Below are positions 3,149-34,217 of a stretch of 64,000 bases of DNA, piece after piece. Under the pieces are notes generated by a model that was given only the letters and a program-made list of their open reading frames with translations, searched no databases and had not been told where the DNA came from. The stretch's first letter is position 1, and every line of letters starts with the position of its first letter. The position numbers and the translations under genes were made by a program. This stretch comes from Candidatus Latescibacterota bacterium (GTDB lineage Bacteria; Latescibacterota; UBA2968; GCA-2709665): the NCBI GenBank assembly GCA_965237675.1, contig OZ250150.1:2848001-2912000 (forward strand), read 5' to 3'.

Positions 3149-4945
3149 CTACCAGGCGCTGAGGCGTTGCTCGAGGGCGTTGAGTTCGGTTAACAATTCC
3201 CGGGGCAGGCGATCTCCAAAGCCGGCGTAGAACTCCTGGATATCGGGCAGTTCGGCGCGCCAGTGTTCCGCATTCACGGAAAGCAACTCATCCACGTGGG
3301 CATCCGGGACGTCCAGGCCGTCGAGGTCCAGGGCGTCGGGCGTCGGGACATAGCCGATTGGGGTTTCAACCGCGTCCGCCGTGCCTTCGATGCGTCCGCA
3401 GATCCATTTGAGCACGCGGCTGTTCTCGCCGAAACCGGGCCAGAGCCAGTTGCCGTTCGCGTCCTTGCGAAACCAGTTCACGTAGAAGATTCTGGGCGCG
3501 TTGTCGCCCAGCCGGGCACCGATATCGAACCAGTGTCTGAAATAGTCGCCCATATGATAGCCACAGAAAGGAAGCATCGCAAAGGGATCTCTCCGCAGCT
3601 TGCCCACGGCGCCGGCCGCGGCGGCCGTGGTTTCGGACGCCATAATGGAGCCCAGGAAGACGCCGTGCCGCCAGTTCGTCGCTTCGAAGACCAGGGGAAC
3701 GACCAATGAGCGACGACCGCCGAAGATGAACGCCGACATGGGGACGCCATCGGGGTTTTCCCACTCCGGATCGATGACCGGGCACTGCACGGCCGGGGCG
3801 GTGTACCTGGCATTGGGATTGGAGGCTTTGCCTTCCGAACCCGGTGTCCAGGGACGGCCCAGCCAATCTTCCAGTTGTGGGGGTGGGTCGTCCGTCATCT
3901 CTTCCCACCAGACGTCGCCCTCAGGTGTGAGCGCCGTGTTGGTGAAGATGCTGTTCTTTGTGAGGGCAGCCATGGCGTGGCCATTGGAATCCAGGCTTGT
4001 TCCGGGCGCAACGCCGAAGAATCCGGCCTCCGGGTTGATCGCCCTGAGCTTTCCGTCGGGCCCCTGCCGCATCCAGGCAATGTCGTCGCCCACGCAGCGC
4101 GCTTCCCAGCCGGGGACCGTGGGTTGCAACATGGCCAGGTTCGTCTTACCGCACGCGGATGGAAATGCGGCGCCGATGTAATGTTTTCTTTTTTCGGGAG
4201 AGGTGAGTCCCAGGATGAGCATGTGCTCGGCCATCCAGCCTTCGTCGCGGGCCATGGTCGACGCAATGCGGAGGGCGAAACATTTCTTGCCAAGCAGGGC
4301 GTTCCCGCCGTAACCGGAGCCGTACGACCAGATGGAGGGCTCTTCGGAAAAGTGTACGATGTATTTTCGATCCGCGTTGCACGGCCAGGAGACGTCTCTC
4401 TGTCCGGGCTTGAGCGGGGTGCCCACCGAATGCATGCACGGGAGGAAGTCTCCGTCCCCAAGGGCGTCCAGTACCCGGTCGCCCGTTCGGGTCATGATGT
4501 ACATGCTGCAGACGACGTAAGGTGAGTCCGTGATTTCCACGCCGATCTTGGACGTGGGCGAACCGATGGAGCCCATGGAGAACGGGATCACGTACATGGT
4601 CCGTCCCCGCATCGACCCCGCGAACAAACCCTTGAGATTGCGTTTCATCCCTTCGGGTTCGCGCCAGTTGTTGGTGGGTCCGACGTCGTCCTCATTGGTT
4701 GTGCAGATAAAGGTGCGGTCTTCCACGCGGGCGACATCGCCCGCGTCGGACCGGGCAAGAAAGCTGTTGGGGCGCCGGTCCGGATTCAGCCGGACAAAGG
4801 TTCCCGCCCGGCACAGCAGTTCGGCGAGATCATTGTACTCTTCCTGGGAACCGTCGCTCCACTGGATGTTGTCGGGCTTACAGAGTTGCGCGGCCTCTTC
4901 TACCCAGTTCAGCAGTTTAAGGTTTGCGGTTTTCCTTTTTTCCAT
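3149..4945 (-). CDS. pckG: Phosphoenolpyruvate carboxykinase (GTP)
   Basis: [55 protein letters not shown]. Confidence 0.98.
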
Positions 4946-19344: not shown

Positions 19345-20646
19345 TTGGCAGTGCATGAAGTAATGATAGCCAGGGAGCCGGAACGCGCGATTCTGGTGGG
19401 GATTGCGCTTCCGAACAATTCATCCTGGGATACAGAGGACACGTTGAATGAACTTGCGCTGCTCGCCGATACGGCGGGCGCGCAGGTTGTGGACCGGATG
19501 GTGCAGGAGCGAGAAAGCATCGATCCGGCATTTTTTATCGGTCGGGGTAAAGCCGAGGAACTCGCGCACCGCGTGAAACAACAGAATGCGCAGGTGGTGA
19601 TTTTTGACGATGACCTGTCACCTGCCCAGCTCAAGAATCTGGAGGAATTGGCGGGAGTCAACGTAATCGACCGGAGCCGACTGATTCTGGACATTTTTGC
19701 CGGTCGCGCAAAAACCCGCGAGGCCCAGACGCAGGTGGAACTGGCACAGCTCAACTATCTGTTGCCGCGTCTGACGCGTCAATGGACGCATCTGTCGCGC
19801 CAGGCCGGCCACGGGGGGACAACAGGCGGAATAGGTACGCGGGGCCCGGGAGAGACTCAGTTGGAGGTGGACCGCCGGGCACTGCGGAGTCGTATCGGGG
19901 TATTGACCAAAGCGCTGAAAAGGATCGCCCGGCGGCGTGTGCTGGAGCGACAACAGCGTTCGGATACATTTCGTGTTTCTCTGGTGGGCTATACGAATGC
20001 GGGCAAATCAACGCTGATGCGCGCGCTTTCCGGCGCCGATGTACTGGTGGAAGACCGCCTGTTCGCAACGCTGGACTCCACGACCCGTAGAGTGTATCTG
20101 GGATACAATCGTGAGATACTACTTACCGATACGGTCGGGTTCATTCGGAAGCTGCCACATCACCTTGTCGCCTCCTTCAGAAGCACGCTTGAGGAGGCGG
20201 TGGATGCGGACCTGCTATTGCATGTTGTCGATGTGAGCCATCCCAAGTGCGAGGATCAGATTGCAGCGGTGTTTGAAACACTCCAGGGATTGGGCATTGG
20301 GGAATACCCAACGTTGATGGCTTTTAACAAGATCGACCGGCTTCACGATCCCGGCGTACAGAGGCGTCTGCAGACCGAGTTTCCAGACGGCATCTGGATT
20401 TCGGCACAGAAGGCCCGGGGGTTGGACGAACTGCGATGGGCGATCTACGACCGGCTCGAGGGCGAGCGCACGGTGTTGCATTTGCGCATTCCCCAGTCGG
20501 AAGGAAAGCTCGTTTCAGAACTGTATCGAGTGGGTGAAATTCTAAGTACGGCCTATGAAGGAAACGATGTGTTTCTGGAAATCAAGCTGAGCCTTCAAAA
20601 TGCCAGGCAACTCGTGCCGGACGGAAGGTTTCGGATTAAGCGGTGA
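19345..20646 (+). CDS. hflX: Ribosome-splitting GTPase HflX
   Basis: GPGETQLEVDRR, GYTNAGKST, LFATLD, DTVGFI, NKID; exact start uncertain. Confidence 0.97.
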   Translation: MAVHEVMIAREPERAILVGIALPNNSSWDTEDTLNELALLADTAGAQVVDRMVQERESIDPAFFIGRGKAEELAHRVKQQNAQVVIFDDDLSPAQLKNLEELAGVNVIDRSRLILDIFAGRAKTREAQTQVELAQLNYLLPRLTRQWTHLSRQAGHGGTTGGIGTRGPGETQLEVDRRALRSRIGVLTKALKRIARRRVLERQQRSDTFRVSLVGYTNAGKSTLMRALSGADVLVEDRLFATLDSTTRRVYLGYNREILLTDTVGFIRKLPHHLVASFRSTLEEAVDADLLLHVVDVSHPKCEDQIAAVFETLQGLGIGEYPTLMAFNKIDRLHDPGVQRRLQTEFPDGIWISAQKARGLDELRWAIYDRLEGERTVLHLRIPQSEGKLVSELYRVGEILSTAYEGNDVFLEIKLSLQNARQLVPDGRFRIKR

Positions 20647-20797
20647 ACCGAAGATCCGCCAGTCCTGCCGAAATTTGGTCCACGCGGCGGATTGCGAAGT
20701 TGGTGTTTAAATTCGGGTAAATTGAACAGGCGTTCGCGGAGAGGAACCGTGAACGCCCATTTTCTGTAGAACCGGTGTCTGCGGATGCGCGTGGCTT

Positions 20798-21217
20798 TCA
20801 GCCCTCCGCTTCTTCTGTTTCAGTCGGTTGGGATTCATGGGTGTCAACCTCCGGTGATGACTCATCTTCGCCTCCGGCGGCGCACTTCCCCTTGATGATG
20901 GCCCCTTCTTCCACGATGATCGATCGTGCGGAAATCTCTCCCGTGAAAACGGCGCTGGCTTCCAGTTTGACACATCCCTTGGCTTCCATTCTACCCGTGA
21001 CTTCCCCGCCAATTACCGCGTCCCGGACACGAACGAACTCGGCTTCCACCTTGCCGGAAGGCCCGATGACAAGGGTGCCGGCGGCGTATAACTCGCCCTT
21101 GAGCGTTCCGTCCAATCTGATGCTTTCTTCGGTCTTTACACAGCCTTCCAAAACTGTGTTCTTGCCAATCACCGTCTTGATGGCTTCCTTTTCCATCTTT
21201 TGTTTGAAAGCTAACAT
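20798..21217 (-). CDS. Bactofilin (polymer-forming cytoskeletal protein)
   Basis: TVIGKNTVLEG...IRLDG.LKG...LVIGPSGKV...IIVEEGAIIKG beta-helix repeats. Confidence 0.92.
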   Translation of the reverse strand: MLAFKQKMEKEAIKTVIGKNTVLEGCVKTEESIRLDGTLKGELYAAGTLVIGPSGKVEAEFVRVRDAVIGGEVTGRMEAKGCVKLEASAVFTGEISARSIIVEEGAIIKGKCAAGGEDESSPEVDTHESQPTETEEAEG

Positions 21218-21364
21218 GCCTATGCCCGCTCGTGAGTGTCCTTACTGCTCAAGAAGTATGTTCCGTGGATTCCTGTTTCCGCGACGTTCCGAAATTCCGG
21301 TTCGGAAAGGCGGGCCGCTGCTACGATCGGTCGTTCCGACAGACAAAACCCATCGACTCCGAAT

Positions 21365-21802
21365 TCATCTGGCATCCGCGGAATCGCGAGGAGATGCGGA
21401 TGGGCGTTCAGGCGTGGTGGCTACGGGCGCGCCTTCTGTTCCATTTTCCTGCGGTCCCGTCGGATTCCCATAGGCAGCCGGCGCCAACCCGGCGTTGGGT
21501 GACAGCATTTGGCGCAGTCTCTGATCGGTTCCCTGGATTCGCTTCAGCATGAGCGCCAGTTCCTCAACGCGGGCGACTTCGGCGTTCAGCCGGCTGTTTT
21601 CTACCATGAGTGTCTGTGCCGACTGTCTCCACTCTCGAATCTTCCAGAAGAAGGCGACTTCCAGGACGAGCATGATGAGCAGCAGGAGGAGGGCGGCGGC
21701 GGCGGCCCTTAGCCGCCAGTAACCGAGCTTGAACACCCGGGTGCGCGAACCGTCGTCGGGGACAAACAGAACCGACATCTGTCTGCGGCGTTGTCTGGCC
21801 AC
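21365..21802 (-). CDS. Membrane/coiled-coil protein resembling the N-terminus of bactofilin-associated M23 peptidases, no M23 domain
   Basis: GTG21802 after AAGGAG; SVLFVPDD..RTRVFKL, one TM helix, coiled coil, low-complexity tail; upstream of bactofilin. Confidence 0.7.
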   Translation of the reverse strand: MARQRRRQMSVLFVPDDGSRTRVFKLGYWRLRAAAAALLLLLIMLVLEVAFFWKIREWRQSAQTLMVENSRLNAEVARVEELALMLKRIQGTDQRLRQMLSPNAGLAPAAYGNPTGPQENGTEGAPVATTPERPSASPRDSADAR

Positions 21803-21953
21803 GCGTGTGGTCTCCTTCTCGGGTGAATTCAAATTCCATGCTGCAATCGACCGGTGTCGTGGGGTTCGGCAGGTAGCTGATGGCGATGGAGCTAACGCTT
21901 TAACGGGTTTCCGGGGTTCACCCGGCCCTGAAGCCCATATGGCGTCCTTATTG

Positions 21954-21982
21954 AGGTTAGGTCCTGGGCTCGCCTTTGTCAA
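21954..21982 (-). promoter_or_regulatory. Putative sigma-70 promoter
   Basis: TTGACA-17-TAACCT. Confidence 0.55.
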
Positions 21983-22062
21983 GTGATTTTAGATGGGGCA
22001 CCGTCCGTTGACGGCGATCGATCTTCAAAGTTCCGATTGGCGCCACCCCTGAATATTCCCAT

Positions 22063-22236
22063 TCATGCGCGTTTCTGCAGCAGCCATCCGGCCACGAACA
22101 TCAGACCGCCGATGCCGGCAAAGCGCAACTCCCGGCCGATGTCCTCTTCGTATAGGCCGACAAACAGGCCGTACCCCATATAAATGAGACCGGCAAGCTG
22201 CAGGGTGCGAGCAAGCAGACGCATTGAAAGACCCAT
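22063..22236 (-). CDS. Small two-TM membrane protein (57 aa)
   Basis: GGAGGAGG RBS, ATG22236, two hydrophobic helices; TTGACG-17-TAATGT at 22308-22336. Confidence 0.75.
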   Translation of the reverse strand: MGLSMRLLARTLQLAGLIYMGYGLFVGLYEEDIGRELRFAGIGGLMFVAGWLLQKRA

Positions 22237-22521
22237 CCCCGCCTCCTCCCGTCTGATCCGCGTTTCCCGACGGAAGAATCGGGGAAAGCGTGCCGTGTAC
22301 ACTCGGAACATTAAGAACTCGCCGTCAATCCGTCAATAGCCCATTTCAACATCGCGGCTGAAGCGGCGCCGCCGAGTTCTGCGAAACAGGATACGCCCGT
22401 CCCGGGACGAATGAGACGGCATTCGGCACCAGCCGTAGTCCGGCTTCCCGACCGGGTTAAGGTGTTCCAAAACGCAAACCAACCGAATGAGCGAAGGTGA
22501 AAAGATCCGGATGCGGAAACG

Positions 22522-22553
22522 CGAAAGCCGACATCGCAAGATATCGGCTTTCG
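22522..22553. terminator. GCAA-tetraloop hairpin (terminator-like)
   Basis: CGAAAGCCGACATC-GCAA-GATATCGGCTTTCG. Confidence 0.5.
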
Positions 22554-22771
22554 ATTGCATGGATCGAGAAAAGCGGTATTATCTCCCAAAATACACAACA
22601 CTGATACTTCAAACGACCACACTTTAGACCCCAAAACGCCGATCTGTTCAGCAACATCAATACTCGCTTATTTTAGGGCCAACACCACATGTGTCCAAAA
22701 ACGCCTATTTAGGCCAAATTTCGAACCTGATGTCTAAAAATCCAACGGTTCTTGGACAGCATTGGGCTAAC

Positions 22772-22817
22772 ACGAAACCTTCATAGCCCCCCTTTCGGCG
22801 GGGACTCAAGATTTCGT
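22772..22817 (-). repeat. Palindromic REP/terminator-like hairpin just after the helicase stop
   Basis: Minus strand ACGAAATCTT-GAGTCCCCGCC-GAAA-GGGGGGCT-ATG-AAGGTTTCGT. Confidence 0.55.
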
Positions 22818-22820
22818 CTA

Positions 22821-25800
22821 TCATGCCCAAAGCCAATCCAACTCGGAGAAAGCAAGCTTCCGGTCGAAGTTCTCGATGTTGTCTCGAACGTTGAGGATCA
22901 GGCAGCGCTGATCGCCACCATTCAAAGGTCCCCGTAAACCCCTGCCTATCATCTGGAAATATAGGTTTGGGCTGTAGACTGGCCGCGCCACGATGATGGC
23001 ACGAGTCTTGGGAGCGTCGAAACCCTCACGGAATACTCCGTAGTTGACAAGTGCCCTTACCTCGCGGTTACGAAACTCTTCAACCACACGGCGGCGGGTC
23101 GCTGCCGCTGTCGTTCCACTGACCGCACGTGACCGGATTCCCCTTCGGTTGAGGAGTGCTGCCAAAGTCTGCGCGTGCTCGACCGATGTCGCAAAGATTA
23201 GTGTTGGCCATTCCGGATCAATATGTGATTCATACGCTTCGATGATGCGTTTGGTTCGCTCGGCGCTCTGAGCGATGCGCTCCTCCACGCTCTGGGGAAG
23301 CCAAGGTAGTGCCAGCCATTCGTTTAGTTTCCGTTCCATTTCTTCCTTGTCCAGCGAGCCATCCAGGATCTCGTCGATCGGGAACGTCTCGCCCTCAATG
23401 GTCTCGTGATCGGCTTGGGCAAGCACACCCATGTTTTGCAACTCGCGGATGACTGCGTCCGGCTCGTCGCTAGCGAACGCTCCTGAGTCCAGTCGCCTGT
23501 TTCCATAGCGACGAACGAGTCTCTTGGTCTCCTCCTCGTTACGTCCGCGATAGGGCGTAGCGGTGAGGCCAAGCATAAACGGCTCTTCCGCTCTTTGAAA
23601 ACGCGTCAATCCGATATCCTGCAATACCGACGTGAAGGTCGGAGCTATGGACCGATGTGCCTCATCGAAAACAACCAAATTAAAGTTGGCCAAAAACCTG
23701 TAGTCTTCTGTTTGGGTCGAGAGTCTCGCTTTAATTGTCTGGATGGTCGCGACGATGACATGAAGTTCGCTCGTCGGCTGTGGCCTCTCTAACCCGCCCC
23801 ACATTCTGGAAGTACGTAGCCGAACCGCTTGCATGCCTATGCTTGACCAAACCTGCCGCCACGCTTCCACGGCTTGCTCGCACAGTTCGTCGCGGTCCGC
23901 GACCCAAAGGACCCCGCCACTAAAACCTTCATCACGCATGGCTTCGACGATTGCCTGCACGGCGACGCGGGTTTTTCCGGATCCCGTCGGCAGACTCATT
24001 ATTCCGCGTCGCTTGGATTCATCCCCGTGTTCGCTACGCAACATTTCCCGGACATTGTCGACAATGGTCCGCTGGTAGACATGAAGGTTCGGAAGCGAGA
24101 ACGGGCCTTCGATCTCCAGAAAGGGATCGCGCTTCCCGTCCCGCTCTCCGGCCCATTCGGCGGAGAATCCGAGGGACCGCACGAAGTCCACGGCCCGCTG
24201 CGAGCCAGCCCATTGTGACGGCGGATCGAAACGATCCAACCCCCACCTGTATTGCTTGAGCGCGTCGGTGTGCCAAGTAGCAATGGCAGCTTCGGCGATA
24301 TCAACACTCGTCAGTGCGACGCCGTCGCTCTCGAGTACACCCAGAAGGGAGTCGGGAAGACCTGCGCGCAACGTTTCTTCACCCACCGCAGCTAGAAGCC
24401 GTTCAGCGTCGGTCGTATACTGCCGAACTCTCTCACGTCTCTCCTCGATCTCCTGCGGCGTCTTGCGGTTCAGAATCTCGACGATTTTCTGAAGGCCTAT
24501 CCCAAGCTCCAGCTCGTCAACGACGAGCTGGAGCTTTCGTAACTCGTCATCACCAACGGTGTCGGCAAGAAAGATATCGGAGGCGTGTAGAACGCACTCG
24601 CGAGGTTGTCCAAGGACGAGTATTCGCTCGCATCGAATGAGATTGCACGTTCTCCGATGCGTTGGAAGACTTGGTCCCAGTCCCGGCCAAATGTCAGTCA
24701 AAGGGATAGGATCGCCTTCGCCATGAAATTCCGGTACTGGTTCGGCCAAATCAAAGGCGGCCTTGATCTTGTCAGCCTGCGGATGAGCTAGTAGGATGTG
24801 CAGGGCTTCCGGACTCTTCGGGTGCGGTCCAAGGGCGTATGCTAGCGGCACAATGCCGCTGGGGGTCCGGATTAGTCCATGCGTTCGAAGCATGTGTATT
24901 GTAAGCGACTCGTACTGCACACTTGGGTATGATCGTCGATTCGTTCCCGTATGTTGCATTGTCCAACGTTCGAAGGAAGCATCGAGACCCAACAGCGCGT
25001 CCGTGTAGAACGCGTTGCCCGTATCGGAAAGGGTCGCAAGAACGCTCAGCGGGCCGACACCCTCGGATGAAGTGAATTCCAGGTACCACCTATTTGGATT
25101 GTGTGGCAGATTGTCCTGTTGGGAATAACGCGTGCGGCAAGTATTGAGGAATGACCTGAACTGCGGTTCTAACGACAGTTCCCGGCCATCATGTGGGGCC
25201 TCTGTCAGACCAAGAACGCGTAACAGATGATCGTTCGCTTCATGGAATTCGGTGTTCACAGTGGTGTTTTCGTCCCGGCTCCCATCGTCCGGCACGATCT
25301 GACCCGGCAGCAATACAGAATGAGGAGGCTGCCAAGTTTCTGCCCGTGTACGCACTCGGAGTTCGGTGGGCCAAGTTTCTCTTCCATCCCAGTCCTTGTA
25401 CTCTCGAATAACATCGCTGGCCGCTCCCGGTGATAGCGTGCGCGCAGTGATCCAGAAGTCGCGATGAAGATCGTCTCCTAGTTCCTCACTGCTGTCGGTT
25501 TGAAGGATCCGCTGTGCGACCTGTCGAAACTTCCTTTCCGGGGAAGGCGGCCTGAGTCCCAATTTCTTAAGTGCGGTAAGCGTGTCACCGTCCACCACCA
25601 GTTCACGGTGGACGTATGACGCTTGGTCCGCAGTGCCGTCGCCATTCAGCGACTCATCAGGCAGGAAAAGATGATCGGGATCGGGCGATAGCCAATGGCC
25701 GCTTGCCGTCAGAACGATGTCGCCAAGTCCGTCGATTGACCTATGTTCGGTAGGTATTTCTGCGGCCGTCTGGATAGCGGCCATTGAAGCTCGAACGGCT

Positions 25801-27338
25801 TCATCCGCCCTATGGTCTCGCACGAGAGAACTTAACCATTCGGCGATCGTGGCCCTGGGCACGGTCGGGGAGCTTCCCGGTAAACGCGAGGGAAACAGCC
25901 GGTCGACGCTAGCGAGACGGTTGCGTGTGAGGGCTTCATGGTGCAGCCAATTCGATGGTCGCCCCGGATACGCTGACCAGCGCATAAATGGCGCCTTGTC
26001 CGAGGCGTCGGTCAATTCCCTAGGGGGATATAAGATTTCCCCCATGGTGCGCAACTTTCCTTTCTGATCGGGTACGATTTCTCGTTTGCGTAGATGGGCA
26101 AACAAACGGTTGCGAAGCAGAACACTCTGCTCCGAGTCACCAGACTCTTGTCTGCGAGGCAGTGCGTCCAAATGGCAAGCAGGGTCTAACTGAGTCGCGA
26201 GTCTTGGCAATTCGTCGGCTATCAGCCGTGCCGCCATTTCGATCAGTTCGTCGTTATACGGTCCAGGCAGCAGATTTTGACGATCTTCATTGGTTTTCCA
26301 TGGCGCATTCAGGATACCGGCAAGGAGGCTTGCGGTCTTGGTCGGGAAGAACGCCCAGAAATGTCCGGGGCGATCCAAGCGATCTAGCGGTGCCGCCCAC
26401 GAGATCGGCACGTTGCCGCTGCCTTCGTCCAAGCCCCAGTCGCTCCGTGCTTCGGAAGAAAGGGCATGGGTTGTTTTGAAAAGCCGCCAACGCGAAGTCC
26501 CTTCGCCGGTATCGAGATGAAACTCCCCCTGCCGATCCTGCAAGATGAAGCTCCGGGAAACTTCCCCATCCTCAAGGGTCAGATAACGGACATGATCGAC
26601 GAAAAGCAAAAATTCGGGCGGAAAGTCTCTGATCTGTTGGGCGAGGTCATCATGCGCACCGGGCTCTATCGGCAGGCGGACGATGTTCGTCGCCCAACTC
26701 ATCAGTTCCCGCATTTCCGCGTCGGTATCACTCTCATTGTAGGGATCGATCGGTTCGGGCAAACGCAGCACAGGGTATCCTTCGGCTTGCGCGACGTCCG
26801 CTATTCGTTTCGCCGAGCGCGTTTTGTTGAACAAGAACGAACCAGACCGGCTGTAGAACTCGGGAGCATCCGTTACTCTCAAGACCGATTTGAAGCCCTT
26901 CCCGAACCTTCCGATCGCGGGGGTGTTCCGTTTGCTCGACATGCGGTCGAACATTAGACCCACGATTCCGTCCTCGTCGATAGATTTTCCATCGTCGGCA
27001 CAGTAGAGGAAGCGTTTCGTCAGGCGGATCAGGATGCTCCTGGCTTTTGGCGCGTCGAGCAAGGCGTCCGCGCTGTTCTGAACGAGTTCGAACAATTGCC
27101 GATGGGCATATCCACCATGAGCGGTATCGTGTTCGAGGTTGGCATGCTCGGTTACTAGACGTGGCTGCGCGCGGTACGATTCGAGAGTTCTTTCCGCCTC
27201 CTCGACAATGAACTTAGCGATCTGCCCTGTGGGGCCGATCCAATTCGGTTTCTCGTCGAAAGCGGAAAAGCCCAGCTTGGCATTCTCGCGGAAAAACCTA
27301 CCGCGCTCGCCTTTCGAAAAGTCGTATTCTGTCTTCAT
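22821..27338 (-). CDS. Sacsin-like GHKL ATPase + SF2 (DEAH) helicase, N-terminus antitoxin-like
   Basis: LFELVQNSADA, ADDG, IGRFGKGFKS (GHKL); LPTGSGKT, DEAH, TATP, EGFDAP, QMIGRGLR (SF2); begins MKTEYDFSKGERGRFFRENAKL. Confidence 0.9.
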   Translation of the reverse strand: MKTEYDFSKGERGRFFRENAKLGFSAFDEKPNWIGPTGQIAKFIVEEAERTLESYRAQPRLVTEHANLEHDTAHGGYAHRQLFELVQNSADALLDAPKARSILIRLTKRFLYCADDGKSIDEDGIVGLMFDRMSSKRNTPAIGRFGKGFKSVLRVTDAPEFYSRSGSFLFNKTRSAKRIADVAQAEGYPVLRLPEPIDPYNESDTDAEMRELMSWATNIVRLPIEPGAHDDLAQQIRDFPPEFLLFVDHVRYLTLEDGEVSRSFILQDRQGEFHLDTGEGTSRWRLFKTTHALSSEARSDWGLDEGSGNVPISWAAPLDRLDRPGHFWAFFPTKTASLLAGILNAPWKTNEDRQNLLPGPYNDELIEMAARLIADELPRLATQLDPACHLDALPRRQESGDSEQSVLLRNRLFAHLRKREIVPDQKGKLRTMGEILYPPRELTDASDKAPFMRWSAYPGRPSNWLHHEALTRNRLASVDRLFPSRLPGSSPTVPRATIAEWLSSLVRDHRADEAVRASMAAIQTAAEIPTEHRSIDGLGDIVLTASGHWLSPDPDHLFLPDESLNGDGTADQASYVHRELVVDGDTLTALKKLGLRPPSPERKFRQVAQRILQTDSSEELGDDLHRDFWITARTLSPGAASDVIREYKDWDGRETWPTELRVRTRAETWQPPHSVLLPGQIVPDDGSRDENTTVNTEFHEANDHLLRVLGLTEAPHDGRELSLEPQFRSFLNTCRTRYSQQDNLPHNPNRWYLEFTSSEGVGPLSVLATLSDTGNAFYTDALLGLDASFERWTMQHTGTNRRSYPSVQYESLTIHMLRTHGLIRTPSGIVPLAYALGPHPKSPEALHILLAHPQADKIKAAFDLAEPVPEFHGEGDPIPLTDIWPGLGPSLPTHRRTCNLIRCERILVLGQPRECVLHASDIFLADTVGDDELRKLQLVVDELELGIGLQKIVEILNRKTPQEIEERRERVRQYTTDAERLLAAVGEETLRAGLPDSLLGVLESDGVALTSVDIAEAAIATWHTDALKQYRWGLDRFDPPSQWAGSQRAVDFVRSLGFSAEWAGERDGKRDPFLEIEGPFSLPNLHVYQRTIVDNVREMLRSEHGDESKRRGIMSLPTGSGKTRVAVQAIVEAMRDEGFSGGVLWVADRDELCEQAVEAWRQVWSSIGMQAVRLRTSRMWGGLERPQPTSELHVIVATIQTIKARLSTQTEDYRFLANFNLVVFDEAHRSIAPTFTSVLQDIGLTRFQRAEEPFMLGLTATPYRGRNEEETKRLVRRYGNRRLDSGAFASDEPDAVIRELQNMGVLAQADHETIEGETFPIDEILDGSLDKEEMERKLNEWLALPWLPQSVEERIAQSAERTKRIIEAYESHIDPEWPTLIFATSVEHAQTLAALLNRRGIRSRAVSGTTAAATRRRVVEEFRNREVRALVNYGVFREGFDAPKTRAIIVARPVYSPNLYFQMIGRGLRGPLNGGDQRCLILNVRDNIENFDRKLAFSELDWLWA

Positions 27339-27622
27339 TCGCCAGACTCGTATTGACGCCGTTCGTTAGGGGTGGCGACGCGCGCCGAGATGAGCCGCAC
27401 CAATGTCTCGCGGTCGCCGGACTCGGCATCAGTATGACACACCACCAGCAGCCGACCGTCCTGAGCGCAACCCATGGTTATCCAGCGCTCCTCGAACTCA
27501 CTGTGATCCTCGTCGGGAATCGACTTCGAGAGCGGATCCCGGAAGACCGTGGCTGCAAGTTCGAAGCTGACCTTGTGATTCCGTAGATTGCTCGCTGCCT
27601 TGGCTGGATCCCAATCGAACAT
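27335..27622 (-). CDS. brnT: BrnT family ribonuclease toxin (DUF497)
   Basis: FDWDPAKAASNLRNHKVSF..A..VF.DP, EERWITMG, LLVVCHT, RLISAR.AT..ERRQYE. Confidence 0.93.
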   Translation of the reverse strand: MFDWDPAKAASNLRNHKVSFELAATVFRDPLSKSIPDEDHSEFEERWITMGCAQDGRLLVVCHTDAESGDRETLVRLISARVATPNERRQYESGE

Positions 27623-27831
27623 GCCGTTCCATTCAACGCGGCGATCGGTCGGCGGATGGGCTTATGCTTGAGACAATGGACTTGGCTGCACGGAGTGAGA
27701 TCGCACGAGGACGGAAAAAGGAATCGCAGTGTCTATTCACAGTAGAGGACTTGCGCATGGCGTCCACTGCGGCACCGTCAGGAGCCAAGGACAATGCAGA
27801 GGACTAGAACGTACGCGCCGTTATAGCGGAG

Positions 27832-28296
27832 CTAAAATGCCTTGTTGAGGTTCAGTCTGACGCCCCTGCGGTTGAGGTCGCCATTGACGGCCAGGCCGAC
27901 GCCTCCCATTTCGACCATATTGTTTCTCTTTTCGGGGGGCGGGAGGTCCTCTCCCTCATCCGATAGAAAAAGGTGGACCGAATAGGCCAGGGCCCCCACG
28001 CTCAGGCCAAACAGCACGGCGGCTTTGGTATCGCCCGATTTGCTTTCGTTGTAAAAGTCGGTCGCCGTCTCGGAGGACGTTGTGGTTCTGTACCGCTCGT
28101 ACGCGTTGTCCGCATCCTTCCTGGCAGCTTGCGCCTCTTTGAGGAACCAGATGCCCGCGGCGAGCGAGAGCGTTCCGTACAGTTTCTTGGAATACAGGAA
28201 GTCTTTCTTTTTCTTCTGCGCGATCGCCGGAACCGCTGAGAGTATCAGCATGGCGACGGCAACGGCGAGTGCGCATGCCCGTTTACGGCTGTCCAT
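27832..28296 (-). CDS. Hypothetical exported/membrane protein
   Basis: Signal-peptide-like N-terminus (PAIA-Q), two hydrophobic segments, C-terminal Phe; GGAGG RBS; follows TolC. Confidence 0.7.
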   Translation of the reverse strand: MDSRKRACALAVAVAMLILSAVPAIAQKKKKDFLYSKKLYGTLSLAAGIWFLKEAQAARKDADNAYERYRTTTSSETATDFYNESKSGDTKAAVLFGLSVGALAYSVHLFLSDEGEDLPPPEKRNNMVEMGGVGLAVNGDLNRRGVRLNLNKAF

Positions 28297-28339
28297 AAAT
28301 TCCTCCGCAGATCTAATTAACCCTTACCGGATGTTCCTT

Positions 28340-29716
28340 TCATTCCTCGTTCTGAACAAGCGGCCCTCCGACGTGCTGTTCCAACTGAGCCAATTCGATC
28401 TGATATTGGAACTTCTCATGCACGAGCTGGTTTCGGGCCGTAAAGAGTTGAAATTGCGCTGTTTGGCGTTCGAAAAAAGTGCCGCCGCCCAGGTTGTAAC
28501 GCTGGTCCTCAAGCCTGAAGACTTCTTCGGCGGCCTTCACGGCGGTTTCGTTGGCGGCGATGCTCTGGCGAAGACGTTCGAGGTTCAGGAACGACAGCCT
28601 GATGTCCATCTCTCTCTGACGTTTCGCCTGGTCGAGTTGCTCCTGGCTTCTCAGGTACTCCAACTTCTGGATTTTGATGCCATTTATGGTATTCAATCTG
28701 TTGAAAATCGGGAGGCTGACACTGATGCCCGCGCTGTACGAGTAGTTCTTGACAAAGAGATCTTCCACGCCCGAAAAACTCTCGTCGCGGTTCAACCGCC
28801 AACTGTACCCTGTGCTACCCGAAATCGTTGGGAAGCGTACGCTGTATTTCGTGGCTCTCAGTTGATCCCTGCTGGCAAGCATTCTGTGTTTTTGCGCCAG
28901 AATCTCGGGATTCCCCTTTAGCGCCCGCCTCAACGACTCCTGGTAGGTGATGGGCGGGGGCGTAACCGAAAATGTCTTCTCGGTTGGATAGATGTTAACG
29001 TCGGGACCGAGTCCGAGGGAAAACGCGAGCTGTGAGCGGGCAATGGCAACGTCGTTTTCCCTGGCGATAAGTTCTACGCGAAAACGAGCCAACTGAGATT
29101 CGGCGCCGAAGACGTCCGAAATGGTGGAGGAACCGATCTCATACAGCGTATTGTTGCGGCGAAGGCTCTCTTTCGAAACGCTGACCTGCTCTTTCGCCAG
29201 TTCCAGCTGCTCCATTCGCTGGAGAAGGATGAAATAACGTTGTTTCACCTGAAAAACCGTCTGGTGGCGGCTGCCGGACAGGTCCATCTCCGCCGCCCGC
29301 GCAGTCTTCTTGCTGGCCGATAGATTGGCAAGACTGGCAGCGTTGAAAATGGTAAGGCTCATGCTCGACCCCACCGATTGGGACCCGCCCACACGGTCTT
29401 CGCCCAGGGTGGTGATGATTGTCTGCGTTGTTTGATCGAAAATCGCCCCTTCCCGTGGGCCCGTGACACTTCTGGAAATTCCGTAGTTGCTGCTCAGCGA
29501 TGGAAGGAAGGCGTTTCGCATCTGGTCGATCCGGGCGACGGCAATCTCCCGCGAGAAGCGGCTTTGGGTAATTGCCGAGTTGTTTCCCAGAGCGATTTCG
29601 ACGCTTTCGGCCAGGCTGAGGTGCATTTCTCTGGATTGCGTTTCTTCGGCCGCGACAGGGGCGGAAAGCACTGCGGCAACAGTGAACAGCAGCGCGGTTC
29701 TCAGCACACGTGACAT
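28340..29716 (-). CDS. TolC family outer membrane efflux protein
   Basis: Signal peptide, LSLAESVEIAL.NN, FLPSLS, VSLPIFN, duplicated OEP helical repeats. Confidence 0.9.
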   Translation of the reverse strand: MSRVLRTALLFTVAAVLSAPVAAEETQSREMHLSLAESVEIALGNNSAITQSRFSREIAVARIDQMRNAFLPSLSSNYGISRSVTGPREGAIFDQTTQTIITTLGEDRVGGSQSVGSSMSLTIFNAASLANLSASKKTARAAEMDLSGSRHQTVFQVKQRYFILLQRMEQLELAKEQVSVSKESLRRNNTLYEIGSSTISDVFGAESQLARFRVELIARENDVAIARSQLAFSLGLGPDVNIYPTEKTFSVTPPPITYQESLRRALKGNPEILAQKHRMLASRDQLRATKYSVRFPTISGSTGYSWRLNRDESFSGVEDLFVKNYSYSAGISVSLPIFNRLNTINGIKIQKLEYLRSQEQLDQAKRQREMDIRLSFLNLERLRQSIAANETAVKAAEEVFRLEDQRYNLGGGTFFERQTAQFQLFTARNQLVHEKFQYQIELAQLEQHVGGPLVQNEE

Positions 29717-30185
29717 AAAGGGCGCTCCTATATTCATCTCTTCCCAGCCCCTTCGATGTCCTGGAAAAAGGGGACCCATTGTGTTGTATCAGACCGGGCC
29801 GTACCGGTACGAATCCGTTCCCGATGACACCGACATTCCCAGCAAGTCCGATCGGGGTGATTGTCGGGCCGGGCCGGACAACCCGACCGCCCGGGTCGAT
29901 ATTCCAGGACAACGGCCTGCGGACGGGATGCCGGTTATCCTACTTAGACAACGCAACAACCAAAAAAGTTACCGGTAAATCGCTTCCCGTCGCGGGTGGC
30001 GAAGTAGTAAAGAAAACAGAATTCAGGACAAAAGGAAAGCGAAAACTTCCGTGTGTGGAAACCGGAATTGAGTGCAGCGATTCCGAAATGCCGTGAACGC
30101 GCGAGGCTCCCGTGGACTCTATTGGTCGTGTCGATGACTTGGCCTTCGCGCGTGATTCCTGCCCGCCGGCACCCGATGCCAGGCC

Positions 30186-33100
30186 TCAATCCCTTCGATC
30201 CAGGAGGGAATAGACGGTCGGGATGACGATCAGTGTGAGCGCGGTCGAACTGATGAGGCCGGCAACCACGGTGATGGCCATTGGAGTTCGGATCTCCGAG
30301 CCTTCGCCCAGGCCCAGAGCCATGGGTAGAAGCCCAAGAACGGTGGTTGCGGTCGTCATCAATATCGGGCGCAACCGCACGGAGCCGGCCTGTATAATGG
30401 CGTCGGCCTTGGATCGGCCATTGGCGCGCAGGTGGTTGATGTAGTCGACAAAGACGATGGCGTTGTTGACGACAATTCCGGCCAGCATGATCAATCCCAG
30501 GAAGACCACAACGCTGAAGGAGATACCGGTGACAAAAAGGGTCAGGAAAACGCCGATCAACGCCAGGGGAATGGTGAAAATGATGACAAAGGGATGTATG
30601 AAGGATTCAAACTGGGAGGCCATGACGATGTAAACCAGAAACACGGCCAGGCATAGAGCGAAGATGAGGCTTTGCATCGAGGTCTGCATCTCCCGGTTCT
30701 GGCCGCCGATGACAAAGGACACGTCCGCAGGAATGTCAACTTCCTCCAGGGCCTGCTGGATCAGCCCGGTTGCGGTTCCCAGATCGATACCGGCGACGTT
30801 GGCCGATATGAGCACGGCGCGCTGCTGGTCGATACGCCGGATCTCGCTGGGGCCTTCACGAACCTGTATGTCTGCGATGGCCGAGAGGTATATGGGAACC
30901 TCACCGTTGGGGTTGACCACCAGGCGTTTCAGATCGGACACGCCCGATCGATCGGCTTTGTCTACGCGAACCAGGACATCGATGCGGCGGTCGGCCTCCC
31001 GAAACCGGGTGACCACGTCACCCTGTACTTTTTCTCGAACCAGCGTGGCTACGCTTCGCAGATTGAGTCCATAGGAGGCCAGCAGGTCCCGGCGGTAGAC
31101 GATCTGTACTTCGGGACTCCCGCGCTGGAGACTGGATTTCACGTCGTATAACCCCGGAATTCCGGAAAGGGCGCGTTCCACGTTTCGTCCCAGACTGGCG
31201 AGGTCGCCCAGGTCGTAACCTCGAATTTCCAACTCTACAGGTGTCTTGAAGGTAAACAGGGCCGGACGTGAAAAGTTGACCGTGACCTGTGGCAGATCAC
31301 TCAGGATGTCCCGCAATCGGGACATGAGATCTGACTCTCGTTTTGCCATCAACGTATTGCCGGAAATGCCCGCCCAGACTCTTTTCGGAAACGTACTGAC
31401 GTTTTTCCAGAGCCGGTCCAGGTCGCCCGTGCCGTTTGCATTCTCCTGGGAGACAACGATGGTGACCCTCGAGGTATGTTCTCCCTGGTCGGAGGTGGAA
31501 ATTGAGGTCTTGTCCGCGCCCACGGTGGTCGTAATGCGTTCAACGCCCGGTTCGCCCAGAACCCTCGATTCCACATCTGCCACGGTCCTCTCGGTGCGTT
31601 CCAGGGGCGTACCCACCGGCATGGTCAGTTCCAGGTCGAATTCGCCTTGGTGAACTGACGGGATGAGTTCACGACCGATCTGGGGAACCAGGACGTACCA
31701 GCACAGGAGGAATGGCAGGATGGCCAGGGCGATGATGGTGAGGCGGTGCTGTAACGCCCAGCGGATCAAGGAAGGATAGGCCCGGCTGATGGCGCCGAAG
31801 CCGATTTCAAAGGCGTGAATAACGGGCGTGAGCAGGGGAACGACGATGGCGGCCAGCACAGCCAAGGCCGTCACCCCCGCCGGAAAGGTAATCATCAGAG
31901 TCAGGATCAGGAGCTTGCCCAACAGGGATGCCGTCAGGAAGATGAAATACCGCAGCACGAAGTAGACAGGTCCGAGCACGAAGAGCAGGCCCAGGAAGAG
32001 AACGCCCACCAGGGCCGGCGGTATTCTCAGGAATATAGCGAAACCGCGACCCCGAAACGGCCATTGGCACGTGCCTCTGACCGCGCTCCATGTCCATCGT
32101 ACGCAAACGGCGAGTCCTTCGCCCAGCGGGACGGGGGCGCTAAAGACCAGCAGGTCGTGCCAGATGGCGTGTACAATTCTGGATCCGAAGGGCGTCGGGT
32201 TTTTGGACCATGTGCATAGATCCCGCCAGGCATGCGCGGGTTTTTTCCGGATCTTCCGGATAAGGGCGGCAACCGGGAAATACAAAATGGGGGCCAGGAT
32301 CACGCAGACGGCCTTCAGAGTGACGATCAGGATCGCAAGCGCTACCCAGAGCGTGCGCCCAATGAATTCCAGCGCGAGCCATGACACAAAGATACAGGCC
32401 TTAAGCGCCAGGACCGGAAGCCGTGCCAGTGACCTATCGCCGGCAAGTTCCTTGAGACGGGCAAGGGATTTGAACTGCAGCAGTTCCGAGTTGAACATCT
32501 CGCTGGCGGTCGAGCCGGTGCGTCCGCCGCGGGACCCGCCGAGGCGGATTTGGCGGGAAGCGAGCATCGGAATGAAGAAGAGTGCGACTGCCAGTGACGC
32601 TATCAGCGAAAAGACCACGGTAAGGGACATATCGCCAAAGACCTGGCCGGCCACGCCTTCCACGAAGACAATTGGAAAAAAGACGGCGACCGTGGTGAGT
32701 GTGGAGGCAAAAACCGCCCCGCCGACTTCGCCCGTTCCGCGAACCGCGGCGGTAACGATGTCGTCTCCTTCTTCCCGGCATCGAAAGATGCTTTCCAGTA
32801 CGACAATGGAGTTGTCTACCAGCATACCGATGCCCAGCGCCATGCCGCCCAGCGACATGATGTTCAAAGAGACGCCGAAAATTTTCATGGGGGCGAACGT
32901 GGCTACGATCGAAATCGGAATGGCCAGGCTCACAATGCCGGTATGGGAAGGGTTGCGCAGGAAGATATAAAGCACCAGGATCGCAAGAATGCCGCCTATG
33001 ATTGCAGTCTGTTTGACCTCGTCGACTGACCGCTTGATAAATAGCGACTGGTCCGACAGGACTCCCACCTGCAGTCCTTCCGGCATGGTATAGGCGATAA

Positions 33101-34217
33101 AGCTGGTCATTTCCTTGAGTTGGACAAACTGGCGCACCTGGGCGCGTCGATCGGCGCCCTTGGCAGGTTCGATCTCTCCTGCCTTGAGTCGCTGCACGTA
33201 GGCCAGTTGCTCCGCTGTTCCGAACAATCGATCCCGGACCCGCTGTGCGGTCGCGACGATATTCGCGTCGGCTTCTTTGAAAATTTCGATTTCCACGCTC
33301 TCCACGCCATTGACACGGGTGATGATCTCCCGCTCTTTATGGCTGCGGACAATATTGCTGACGTCCTTGAGCCGGATGTCAGCGCCGCTTTTTTGTCCGA
33401 TGACGAGGTCGCGGATTTCATTGATCGTCCGGAATTCGTTCAGGGTGCGAACCATGTACTGGGTCTGCCCGTCAAGCAGACTGCCGCCGGCCAGGTTGAC
33501 GTTCTCTTCGCGGAGACGCCGGTTGATATCGCCGATGCCGAAGCCCAACAGGGCGAGTTGACGTTCGTTGATTTCGACACGGATTTCTTCTTCCAGGCCG
33601 CCGTGGACGCGGGCCGCGGCGACCCCTTTCATTGCTTCCAGCGCCTGTTTGATTTCTTCTTCGGCAATGAGCCGGAGCGCATATAAATCGGTATCGCCGT
33701 AGAGACCGATGCGCATAATGGGATCCTGCGTGGGATCGTAACGCAAGATCAGCGGTTTGTTGACACCCCGGGGCAGGTTCAGCCGGTCCAGGTTTTCCCG
33801 TACCGTCTGTACCGCGTCGTTCATATCCGTGTCCCAGCCGAATTCCAGGATGACGTCCGACAGGCCGGGCCGGGAAATGGATACGATACTCGCCAGATTG
33901 TTGACAACCCCCAGCCGTTGCTCAATTCGCCGGGAGATCAGGTTTTCGACTTCCTCGGGCGCGGTATCGGGATAGTCCGTGCGGATCGTGAGGGTGGGGT
34001 AGGAAATGTCCGGCATCAGGGTGAGCGGTAGCTGCTGGTAGGAAATATACCCGAAGACCGCGATGGCGAGGACGACCATAAAAATGGCCACCGGCCTGCG
34101 GGTGGTTATTTCGAAAGTGCGGGAGATCTGCGTCCTGGCGCGGGAAAGGGGATTTCGGGAACCGTCGCCTGCGGAATCGTCAACCATCTTGTCTGAGTCC
34201 TCAATGAGCCGCACCAA
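30186..34217 (-). CDS. RND efflux transporter (AcrB/AcrD/AcrF family) with large insertion
   Basis: RRPVA, P.ISYP, GMLVDNSIVVLE, GIVVNNAI, RLRPILMT; 1343 aa. Confidence 0.95.
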   Translation of the reverse strand: MVRLIEDSDKMVDDSAGDGSRNPLSRARTQISRTFEITTRRPVAIFMVVLAIAVFGYISYQQLPLTLMPDISYPTLTIRTDYPDTAPEEVENLISRRIEQRLGVVNNLASIVSISRPGLSDVILEFGWDTDMNDAVQTVRENLDRLNLPRGVNKPLILRYDPTQDPIMRIGLYGDTDLYALRLIAEEEIKQALEAMKGVAAARVHGGLEEEIRVEINERQLALLGFGIGDINRRLREENVNLAGGSLLDGQTQYMVRTLNEFRTINEIRDLVIGQKSGADIRLKDVSNIVRSHKEREIITRVNGVESVEIEIFKEADANIVATAQRVRDRLFGTAEQLAYVQRLKAGEIEPAKGADRRAQVRQFVQLKEMTSFIAYTMPEGLQVGVLSDQSLFIKRSVDEVKQTAIIGGILAILVLYIFLRNPSHTGIVSLAIPISIVATFAPMKIFGVSLNIMSLGGMALGIGMLVDNSIVVLESIFRCREEGDDIVTAAVRGTGEVGGAVFASTLTTVAVFFPIVFVEGVAGQVFGDMSLTVVFSLIASLAVALFFIPMLASRQIRLGGSRGGRTGSTASEMFNSELLQFKSLARLKELAGDRSLARLPVLALKACIFVSWLALEFIGRTLWVALAILIVTLKAVCVILAPILYFPVAALIRKIRKKPAHAWRDLCTWSKNPTPFGSRIVHAIWHDLLVFSAPVPLGEGLAVCVRWTWSAVRGTCQWPFRGRGFAIFLRIPPALVGVLFLGLLFVLGPVYFVLRYFIFLTASLLGKLLILTLMITFPAGVTALAVLAAIVVPLLTPVIHAFEIGFGAISRAYPSLIRWALQHRLTIIALAILPFLLCWYVLVPQIGRELIPSVHQGEFDLELTMPVGTPLERTERTVADVESRVLGEPGVERITTTVGADKTSISTSDQGEHTSRVTIVVSQENANGTGDLDRLWKNVSTFPKRVWAGISGNTLMAKRESDLMSRLRDILSDLPQVTVNFSRPALFTFKTPVELEIRGYDLGDLASLGRNVERALSGIPGLYDVKSSLQRGSPEVQIVYRRDLLASYGLNLRSVATLVREKVQGDVVTRFREADRRIDVLVRVDKADRSGVSDLKRLVVNPNGEVPIYLSAIADIQVREGPSEIRRIDQQRAVLISANVAGIDLGTATGLIQQALEEVDIPADVSFVIGGQNREMQTSMQSLIFALCLAVFLVYIVMASQFESFIHPFVIIFTIPLALIGVFLTLFVTGISFSVVVFLGLIMLAGIVVNNAIVFVDYINHLRANGRSKADAIIQAGSVRLRPILMTTATTVLGLLPMALGLGEGSEIRTPMAITVVAGLISSTALTLIVIPTVYSLLDRRD

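Follow-up and report, generated by a model that had tools for sequence, protein, structure and literature searches.

Several described systems resemble parts of the module reported here. The closest system is BrnT/BrnA of Brucella abortus, which pairs a toxin of PF04365 with an antitoxin of PF14384/PF12441. The module is located in a window of 64,000 nucleotides (nt) on contig OZ250150.1 of assembly GCA_965237675.1, Candidatus Latescibacterota bacterium, and all coordinates are positions of this window. It consists of a brnT gene and, directly downstream, a gene for a giant ATPase-helicase, here called the giant protein. As in BrnT/BrnA, the toxin stands first in the operon and is a BrnT-family RNase, the stop and start codons overlap, and the downstream protein begins with a BrnA/CopG-type N-terminal segment, here called the head. 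The difference lies in what follows. The ribbon-helix-helix (RHH) half of the antitoxin, which serves DNA binding and dimerisation, is replaced in the module by an ATPase-helicase of 1480 amino acids (aa). BrnTA is autoregulated and forms a 2:2 tetramer (review PMC5086665). Neither property can apply as such to the module because the RHH half is absent. The head is, judging from sequence comparison, most likely a tethered antitoxin that holds BrnT latent on a sensor ATPase-helicase.

Other known systems share single traits with the module. HigB2/HigA2 of Vibrio cholerae is a toxin-first module of the RelE superfamily, and its antitoxin neutralises the toxin with a disordered segment, as is proposed here for the head (PMC5416850). 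HigA2 differs in that it keeps a helix-turn-helix (HTH) domain, is a small dimeric repressor and belongs, like its toxin, to another family. Single-chain BrnT-BrnA fusions have been listed in 28 prokaryotic and 4 eukaryote-labelled cases, including sponges (mBio 2025, PMC11980606). They show that covalent or otherwise tight coupling is possible between BrnT and the N-terminus of BrnA. In these fusions, however, a complete antitoxin (RHH or HTH) is joined to the toxin, and the word "helicase" is absent from the main text of that paper. A BrnT-like gene also lies in the same direction immediately upstream of CoCoNuT, a large helicase-containing defence system (eLife 2024, PMC11090510). The passage in question places no antitoxin head on the downstream protein, and the scaffold is of the McrBC type. 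The ATPase-helicase itself is closest to the Tiamat-like proteins (bioRxiv 10.64898/2026.09.30.754977, October 2026). Tiamat of Bacillus cereus is an antiphage ATPase/DNase and is the only one for which the preprint demonstrates antiphage activity. Its Type III-A relatives are found in bacteria only and carry a superfamily 2 (SF2) helicase in place of the C-terminal PD-(D/E)xK nuclease. Their effectors may come in trans from a neighbouring gene. The main text of the preprint has 0 mentions of BrnT and no antitoxin-derived N-termini, and it treats prokaryotic N-terminal extensions only as short, with a median of 30 residues. Neither the components of the module nor the concept of a large enzyme holding a latent nuclease is new. 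In PrrC-EcoprrI and in Hachiman (HamA-HamB), a large helicase-containing enzyme holds such a nuclease, which is unleashed on an infection cue. To our knowledge, neither has an antitoxin-derived tether, and their likeness to the module is functional only.

By homology, the first ~25 residues of the giant protein are the N-terminus of the antitoxin with which BrnTs of this subfamily are paired. Free-standing proteins of 64-68 aa that start in the same way were recovered with residues 1-40 in a search limited to shorter proteins. Residues 1-22 of the giant protein are identical to the free 66-aa protein P0126 at 21 of 22 positions (BLASTP E 4e-15, a single comparison). The similarity ends at about residue 25, after a conserved Leu-Pro (24-25), where the free proteins enter their C-terminal half and the giant protein runs into the conserved N-terminus of its own scaffold. 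The C-terminal half of the free proteins remains below threshold against CopG_antitoxin/RHH models (25.6 bits for P0130 and 17.1 for P0126, cut-off 28). Residues 1-40 and 1-60 of the giant protein have no Pfam match even at E<=10. A total of 80 metagenomic loci were fetched from 332 relatives of the free antitoxins. BrnT lies directly upstream in 63 of these and slightly further off in 2; 5 contigs are too short upstream and 10 loci lack BrnT. The upstream BrnTs match the profile of the giant-associated BrnTs, with E down to ~1e-47. This homology, together with the BrnT partners of the free antitoxins, marks the head as the N-terminal segment of the cognate antitoxin, with the junction near residue 25. 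The module had been singled out in a sequence-only reading of the window by a model. The antitoxin motif that it named is correct, and the absence that it noted of the ~50-aa DNA-binding half agrees with both the blank Pfam result and the end of the similarity to P0126.

The head also appears to be held under similar constraint in both contexts, because the per-position conservation of giant heads and free heads matches (Spearman 0.86; 94 distinct giant heads and 56 distinct free-antitoxin heads). The two consensus sequences are the same at 21 of 25 positions. Two short proteins, P0122 (82 aa) and P0123 (61 aa), carry the head followed by the N-terminus of the giant protein, and then diverge and stop. 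These are probably frameshifted or cut giant genes and not small antitoxins.

The head is widespread among the homologues of the giant protein. A total of 1427 homologues were found at E<=0.001 among the scored candidates, and the head was counted in the best 120. These are 59-81% identical to the giant protein and nearly all full-length. The head is present at the start of 107. Among the other 13, three are N-terminally truncated and two begin just after the head. Genome loci were then compared with one genome per species, and the best 80 of 437 relatives were kept. As labelled, they include Gemmatimonadota, Alpha- and Gammaproteobacteria, Acidobacteriota, Chloroflexota, Actinomycetota, Spirochaetota, Verrucomicrobiota, and others, and many are sponge-associated. 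A BrnA-type head was found in 31 of the 80 (30 by pattern, and L071). In 23 of the 31, an uninterrupted and near full-length brnT frame lies immediately upstream; L004, L031, and L071, which are among these, have no canonical brnT start codon at the expected place. Four more have a decayed brnT, frameshifted in L016 and L021, with an internal stop in L025, and with only a diverged C-terminal part in L011. Some of the frameshifts are possibly assembly errors in long-read metagenome-assembled genomes. A faint remnant is present in L029, and L028, L066, and L080 have no brnT. A brnT, intact or decayed, is therefore found upstream in 27 of the 31 head-bearing loci. The head is missing from the remaining 49 loci. 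Four of these (L019, L039, L052, and L081) cannot be assessed since the N-terminus of the giant protein is missing, and brnT is present in 0 of the other 45. No intact brnT without a head was found among the 80 loci. In L081, a brnT remnant (residues 2-23) abuts a giant gene cut to residues 760-1505, which points to a single deletion through both genes.

These counts bear on the possibility that a helicase gene recombined into an antitoxin gene and that the head remains as a functionless start for the ribosome. The near-unchanged head at loci where brnT is decayed or gone (L011, L016, L021, L025, and L066) would fit such a relic. It is highly improbable given that homologues as distant as 59% identity still carry the head, that its near-invariant positions coincide with those constrained in the free antitoxins, that gains and losses of head and brnT coincide, and that a second toxin/head pair exists on the scaffold. 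The sequence-only reading had offered, as one of two explanations, a recent recombination that borrowed the translation start of the antitoxin gene. This does not survive the comparison, as 107 of 120 homologues (59-81% identical) have the head, which occurs in several phyla, and the same positions are constrained in giant heads and free antitoxins. By the sequence evidence, the fusion happened long ago and has been conserved.

The wider family was explored with residues 31-1200 in an exhaustive search of representatives at 50% identity, which returned 3337 matches at E<=0.001. The distant representatives mostly have short N-termini, and among the best 150 of the 3337 the BrnA head was present in P0131 only. 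The toxin-armed form is therefore a sub-branch of a larger toxin-free family. The long N-terminal extensions of P0138, P0182, P0189, and P0192 contain no Pfam domain. The module itself is found in at least 5 phyla at 46-78% identity. In an IQ-TREE tree with posterior mean site frequencies (PMSF; 36 of 74 rows and 800 of 1450 columns), the main head clade is well supported and contains Pseudomonadota, Gemmatimonadota, Spirochaetota, and Acidobacteriota side by side. This mixing of phyla, with many sponge-associated hosts, suggests extensive horizontal transfer in the sponge habitat. Three loci (L033, L036, and L044) stand apart from the main head clade in both the FastTree and the IQ-TREE PMSF trees, and their BrnTs nest among the BrnTs of free antitoxins. 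A second capture of the BrnA head was considered for these. The IQ-TREE PMSF tree needs two changes and its well-supported branches force only one, and the claim was dropped. Another type of N-terminus was seen in many Chloroflexota members. A Lys/Arg-rich head of 30-60 residues is present in L035, L042, L045, L047-L050, L055, L057, L061, and L083 and in P0141, P0142, P0157, and P0159. In these loci the giant N-termini lie near positions 3800-4000, and no toxin was seen upstream. This head may be a nucleic-acid-binding or localisation module.

BrnT matches PF04365 with E 2.2e-25 and 89.2 bits (cut-off 34.5), and PDB entry 7vd7 ("toxin") with E 1.6e-13. Sixteen columns are invariant across 20 giant-associated BrnTs. 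In Brucella BrnT, Asp6, Glu7, Lys9, Arg41, and Glu78 are important for RNase activity (review PMC5086665). In a weak alignment to 3u97 (E 0.27), Asp6, Lys9, Arg41, and Glu78 align with conserved D5, K8, R46, and E87. With four of five equivalents conserved, BrnT is likely to be active as a toxin. Contig 1 of the same genome carries two classical brnT-antitoxin pairs besides the module, L001 (1456-1988) and L003 (1480-1966). The brnT of L001 is followed by a 72-aa antitoxin that passes both PF14384 and PF12441 and whose head is related to that of the giant protein. The brnT of L003 is followed by a 99-aa BrnA-family antitoxin (NF047399, E 3.5e-36). It is conceivable that these antitoxins cross-talk with the giant-linked BrnT. 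The two paralogues could not serve as a root for the BrnT tree because they are not monophyletic.

The coupling of the two genes is as the sequence-only reading had described it. The TGA of brnT shares bases with the ATG of the giant gene as ATGA, with the toxin gene first. An overlap of stop and start was kept in 21 of the 22 loci examined, as ATGA in 20 and as TTGA in 1, and L056 has a short gap. In L071, an indel joins brnT in frame with the giant gene. The next in-frame ATG, GTG, or TTG of the giant gene is codon 82, which falls within the helix of the ATPase N-box. Codon 1 is thus the sole workable start, and the giant protein must begin with the antitoxin-like peptide. The ~1480 aa that had been read after the head agree with the open reading frame (ORF) of 1505 aa. 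No conserved small ORF accompanies the module, as similarity was found in 7 of 253 locus pairs upstream of brnT and in 2 of 231 downstream of the giant gene. Thus, the absence of a separate antitoxin gene, which had been noted for the window, extends to the whole family. Flanking gene families of at least 90 aa are each shared by 5 of the 80 loci at most. The module is a self-contained two-gene unit.

The junction of brnT and the giant gene is present in independent data. A survey of sequence runs found 20 public runs from 8 studies that hold the stretch or a part of it. Positions 26800-27800 are spanned by single contigs from two studies (X1 and X2) with 0 differences, and one of these is possibly the source of the window. 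The junction also recurs in dozens of independent assemblies. A chimeric assembly join, which had been raised as a point to check, is ruled out by these contigs and this recurrence. Run X8 holds short pieces only, one of which skips 220 bases of brnT, and we take these to be the sequence of a relative. A sponge metatranscriptome run contains one contig of 305 nt that covers 26960-27264 with 2 differences; it does not cross the junction, the rest is uncovered, and it does not prove transcription.

A second toxin is found on the same scaffold. In two Dehalococcoidia loci (L046:3536-8506 and L053:3577-8437), a 96-aa RelE/ParE toxin is encoded upstream of the giant gene (TIGR02683, E 4.4e-37; PF05973). 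The toxin gene stops 10 nt before the giant gene. Residues 7-51 of these giant proteins match positions 3-47 of the 89 positions of the cognate antidote, TIGR02684 (E 2.6e-8). The same stretch matches PF21716 with E 2.8e-6 and 27.6 bits (cut-off 27). These proteins therefore keep the N-terminal half of the antidote without its DNA-binding half. The two loci form one clade with L051 and L070 (FastTree support 0.998), and the sister L070 (3827-3985) contains a remnant of the same toxin with stops (E 2.7e-8). With this pair beside the BrnT/head pair, the scaffold has gained a toxin and an antitoxin head at least twice, from unrelated families. By sequence comparison, the TIGR02683/TIGR02684 case is an independent repeat of the design. 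At L019:3099-3784, a pair made up of a Phd/YefM-like antitoxin and a VapC-like PIN toxin was recognised by eye from translations. It lies immediately upstream of a giant gene that is open only from query residue 126 onwards.

The scaffold was explored with several sets of models. The sequence-only reading had described a sacsin-like GHKL ATPase joined to an SF2 DEAH helicase, and both parts were recovered. A sacsin-type ATP-binding domain was found at residues 80-162 (NF047352, E 6e-15). The PADLOC check that had been suggested gave matches of TmtA models to residues 38-506, with a best E of 2.4e-50. ResIII, DEAD, and Helicase_C matches cover residues 1084-1469 (PF04851, E 7.9e-27). The best NCBIfam helicase match is a partial one to the RadD-like NF053632 at residues 1085-1487, and UvrB matches only at E 1e-3. 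Across 37 aligned members, the N-box and G-box of the GHKL domain and helicase motifs I, II, III, and VI are invariant, the latter as Walker A PTGSGKT, DEAH, TATP, and QMIGRG. An AlphaFold2 model of residues 1-420 has a mean confidence (pLDDT) of 70.6 and is ordered from about residue 31. Foldseek aligned this model with the ATPase modules of GyrB, ParE, Hsp90, SMCHD1, and MutL (E ~1e-4, TM 0.2-0.35). In the middle region (507-1083), no Pfam, NCBIfam, or PADLOC domain was found, and the ESM Atlas gave no usable match for residues 500-1085. DUF3684, which makes up the central part of Tiamat, has no Pfam match at E<=0.01, and the TmtA profile match ends at residues 506-515. The Pfam, NCBIfam, and PADLOC scans of the giant protein found no PD-(D/E)xK (DUF3883) nuclease, and its C-terminus is an SF2 helicase. 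The giant protein is single-copy in this genome. A second, distant GHKL-type match elsewhere in the genome (L165, G000:C1:477359-477655; E 2e-5, 35% identity over ~90 residues) sits within an open frame of 1830 aa, which may encode another sacsin/Tiamat-like giant.

The giant protein shares with Tiamat and its Type III-A relatives an Hsp90/sacsin-like GHKL ATPase and the core that follows it, and with the latter a helicase in the place of the nuclease. It is not a canonical Tiamat because the C-terminal PD-(D/E)xK nuclease is absent. Judging from these domain matches, it fits the Tiamat-like Type III-A class, and the label "UvrB-like" is not specifically confirmed. The lost nuclease suggests another function for the head. 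It could be an adaptor that docks BrnT as a working nuclease subunit. BrnT would then not be released and would cleave RNA solely while bound, with the helicase supplying the substrates. Canonical Tiamat has the nuclease, the Type III-A proteins do not, and none was found here. The preprint allows for effectors in trans from a neighbouring gene (bioRxiv 10.64898/2026.09.30.754977), and BrnT-like genes are found just upstream of RtcR-associated CoCoNuT helicase-nuclease systems (PMC11090510). Such an adaptor is nonetheless quite improbable, since the same head in the free antitoxins belongs to a neutralising protein and most relatives of the scaffold have neither a nuclease nor a toxin.

Binding of BrnT by the head was examined by structure prediction, as had been suggested. 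A complex prediction of BrnT with residues 1-40, from alignments of 20 rows, scored 0.32 (runs 0.34, 0.32, and 0.32), and the best of 3 controls scored 0.00. The runs share at least 70% of their contacts, and the partner pLDDT is at least 51; no interface is given. The pair passed the mark of this test, as did 58 of 80 solved complexes and 2 of 110 mismatched pairs. The pass is not a memory of a solved complex because the PDB contains no BrnT-antitoxin complex with such a head and the relatives there, 7vd7 and 3u97, are lone toxins. The prediction thus lends weak support to binding between BrnT and the head. In the AlphaFold2 model of residues 1-420 the head is predicted to be disordered (pLDDT 40-47). 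In V. cholerae HigA2, a disordered N-terminal segment, and even a 20-residue peptide, neutralises the toxin and folds on binding (PMC5416850).

The module can possibly function as follows, and the odds are judged to be slightly better than even. The head would leash BrnT, and the ATPase/helicase would sense an infection cue, free the RNase toxin, and arrest the cell. In this scheme BrnT would be translated first, and the coupled ribosome would then make the giant protein. The disordered head would capture BrnT by folding onto it, and the toxin would never be without its tether. BrnT would be kept latent with one toxin per scaffold, and with the RHH half discarded there would be no classical autoregulation. 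The ATPase/helicase would sense foreign nucleic acid or an infection cue. A change of conformation driven by nucleotide would then unmask or release BrnT, the freed BrnT would cut RNA, and the infected cell would arrest. The sequence-only reading had proposed a guard-type antiphage system of this kind. Its tether is well backed by the similarity of the head to free antitoxins, by its strict pairing with brnT, and by the second toxin/head pair. Binding as such has the weak support of the complex prediction, and AlphaFold2 left the head undocked.

Several observations weigh against this scheme. The read-through frame of L071, which joins BrnT, head, and ATPase, was modelled with AlphaFold2 (20 alignment rows per block; L071 is a decayed locus). 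BrnT reached a pLDDT of 82-96 and the head (99-132) stayed below 50. The head was equally disordered when the N-terminus from the window was modelled alone, so that the comparison does not discriminate. Complex scores of 0.60 or less were obtained for only 7 of the 80 solved complexes and for both mismatched pairs that passed, and at such a score a prediction is wrong in the majority of cases, except where the guess was likely beforehand. In the BrnT subfamily, Glu7 of Brucella is replaced by Pro6, in the same weak 3u97 alignment (E 0.27). The head in the window has Ser25, where at least 90% of the relatives have Pro. The brnT gene has decayed in 4-8 head-bearing loci in which the giant gene and a near-intact head persist, so that BrnT is dispensable for the scaffold, and most members of the family are without any toxin. 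The module in the window adjoins no evident defence island or mobile-element gene, as judged by eye from translations, and no conserved defence neighbours were found in the 80 loci. Nothing demonstrates an antiphage role for a scaffold of this type.

The decay of brnT shows the toxin to be an optional add-on, which is compatible with a sensor, an addiction element, or an adaptor alike. As an addiction module, the toxin/head pair would only stabilise the giant gene, and the ATPase-helicase would not control the toxin. Loss or disruption of the gene would remove the head, and the leftover BrnT would kill or arrest the cell. All of the evidence from architecture and co-inheritance fits this equally well. 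No intact brnT is found without a head, loci with a destroyed giant gene (L080 and L081) have also lost brnT, and horizontal spread across phyla is where selfish stabilisation would pay. On the other hand, addiction needs an antitoxin that is less stable than the toxin, and an enzyme of 1505 aa would be an unusual labile partner. The autoregulatory RHH half that is typical of addiction modules has been discarded. The independent swap of a second toxin family points to something specific to the scaffold, although it is compatible with addiction. Addiction is on balance considered unlikely, if less so than the adaptor.

For release of the toxin by the sensor, a more detailed mechanism can be suggested. 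The head lies ~10 residues before the first ordered helix of the GHKL domain. In GyrB, MutL, and Hsp90, an N-terminal strap is exchanged on ATP-driven dimerisation. By analogy, the head in the place of this strap suggests a direct mechanical link to the toxin. Antitoxin heads could then be interchangeable "sockets" by which giant immune sensors of this kind are armed with various type II toxins, BrnT in the module and RelE/ParE in a sister branch, with ATP-driven dimerisation, prompted by foreign nucleic acid, pulling the head off the toxin. This remains a tentative proposal that is more doubtful than the general scheme.

The module is relevant to an open question, namely how toxin-antitoxin modules are wired into phage-defence sensors. 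It is a natural domain swap in which the DNA-binding half of an antitoxin has been exchanged for an ATPase-helicase of 1480 aa and a putative toxin-binding head of 25 residues has been kept. The swap has survived deep divergence and has spread widely by horizontal transfer, for the most part among bacteria labelled as sponge-associated. An antitoxin head on a Tiamat-like ATPase-helicase with strict brnT coupling was not found described in the searched literature, which leaves most subscription journals and supplements outside. Within the same limits, no recurrence of the head design with a second toxin family was found. The module offers a directly testable model for signal-controlled release of a toxin. 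BrnT is suggested as the missing effector of the nuclease-less Tiamat-like class, and the head is predicted to be a minimal neutralising peptide for this BrnT subfamily. If the sockets are real, they would couple the conformational cycle of GHKL proteins to the release of a toxin in a new way, and large defence proteins could acquire domesticated toxin-antitoxin modules as effectors by this route. If the toxin only stabilises the gene, the module would still illustrate clearly how a giant enzyme can incorporate an addiction element.

The features of the module are collected in Table 1.

Table 1. Positions of the brnT module features in the window
Feature	Positions	Strand	Basis
brnT, 95 aa; BrnT (DUF497) RNase toxin, RelE/ParE superfamily	27335..27622	minus	PF04365
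Giant ORF, 1505 aa	22821..27338	minus	Full-length homologues 59-81% identical
ATGA overlap of brnT stop and giant start (translational coupling)	27335..27338	minus	ORFs of the window; overlap also in related loci
Antitoxin head, giant residues 1-25	27264..27338	minus	Homology to free BrnA/CopG-type antitoxin N-termini
GHKL (sacsin/Hsp90-like) ATPase and first part of Tiamat-like core, residues 38-506	25821..27227	minus	PADLOC TmtA, NF047352, Foldseek
Conserved middle region, residues 507-1083	24090..25820	minus	Many invariant Trp/Pro/Leu columns
C-terminal SF2 helicase, residues 1084-1487 (ResIII/DEAD and Helicase_C)	22878..24089	minus	PF04851, PF00270, PF00271

The surroundings of the module were also explored. 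A scan of 22300-28400 for promoters and terminators gave counts not above those of shuffled sequence. The ~70 nt upstream of brnT (27623-27700) show a short translated similarity to L005, L012, and L060 (E 1e-4 to 6e-3). These loci are otherwise non-syntenic with the window, and longer upstream synteny is found with L004 only. The stretch could be a conserved promoter or leader or a module boundary. The neighbours at 19345-22311 and 27832-34217 appear, by eye from their translations, to be ordinary housekeeping and envelope genes, and include an HflX-like GTPase, a bactofilin-like protein, a TolC-like outer-membrane factor, and an RND-type efflux pump.

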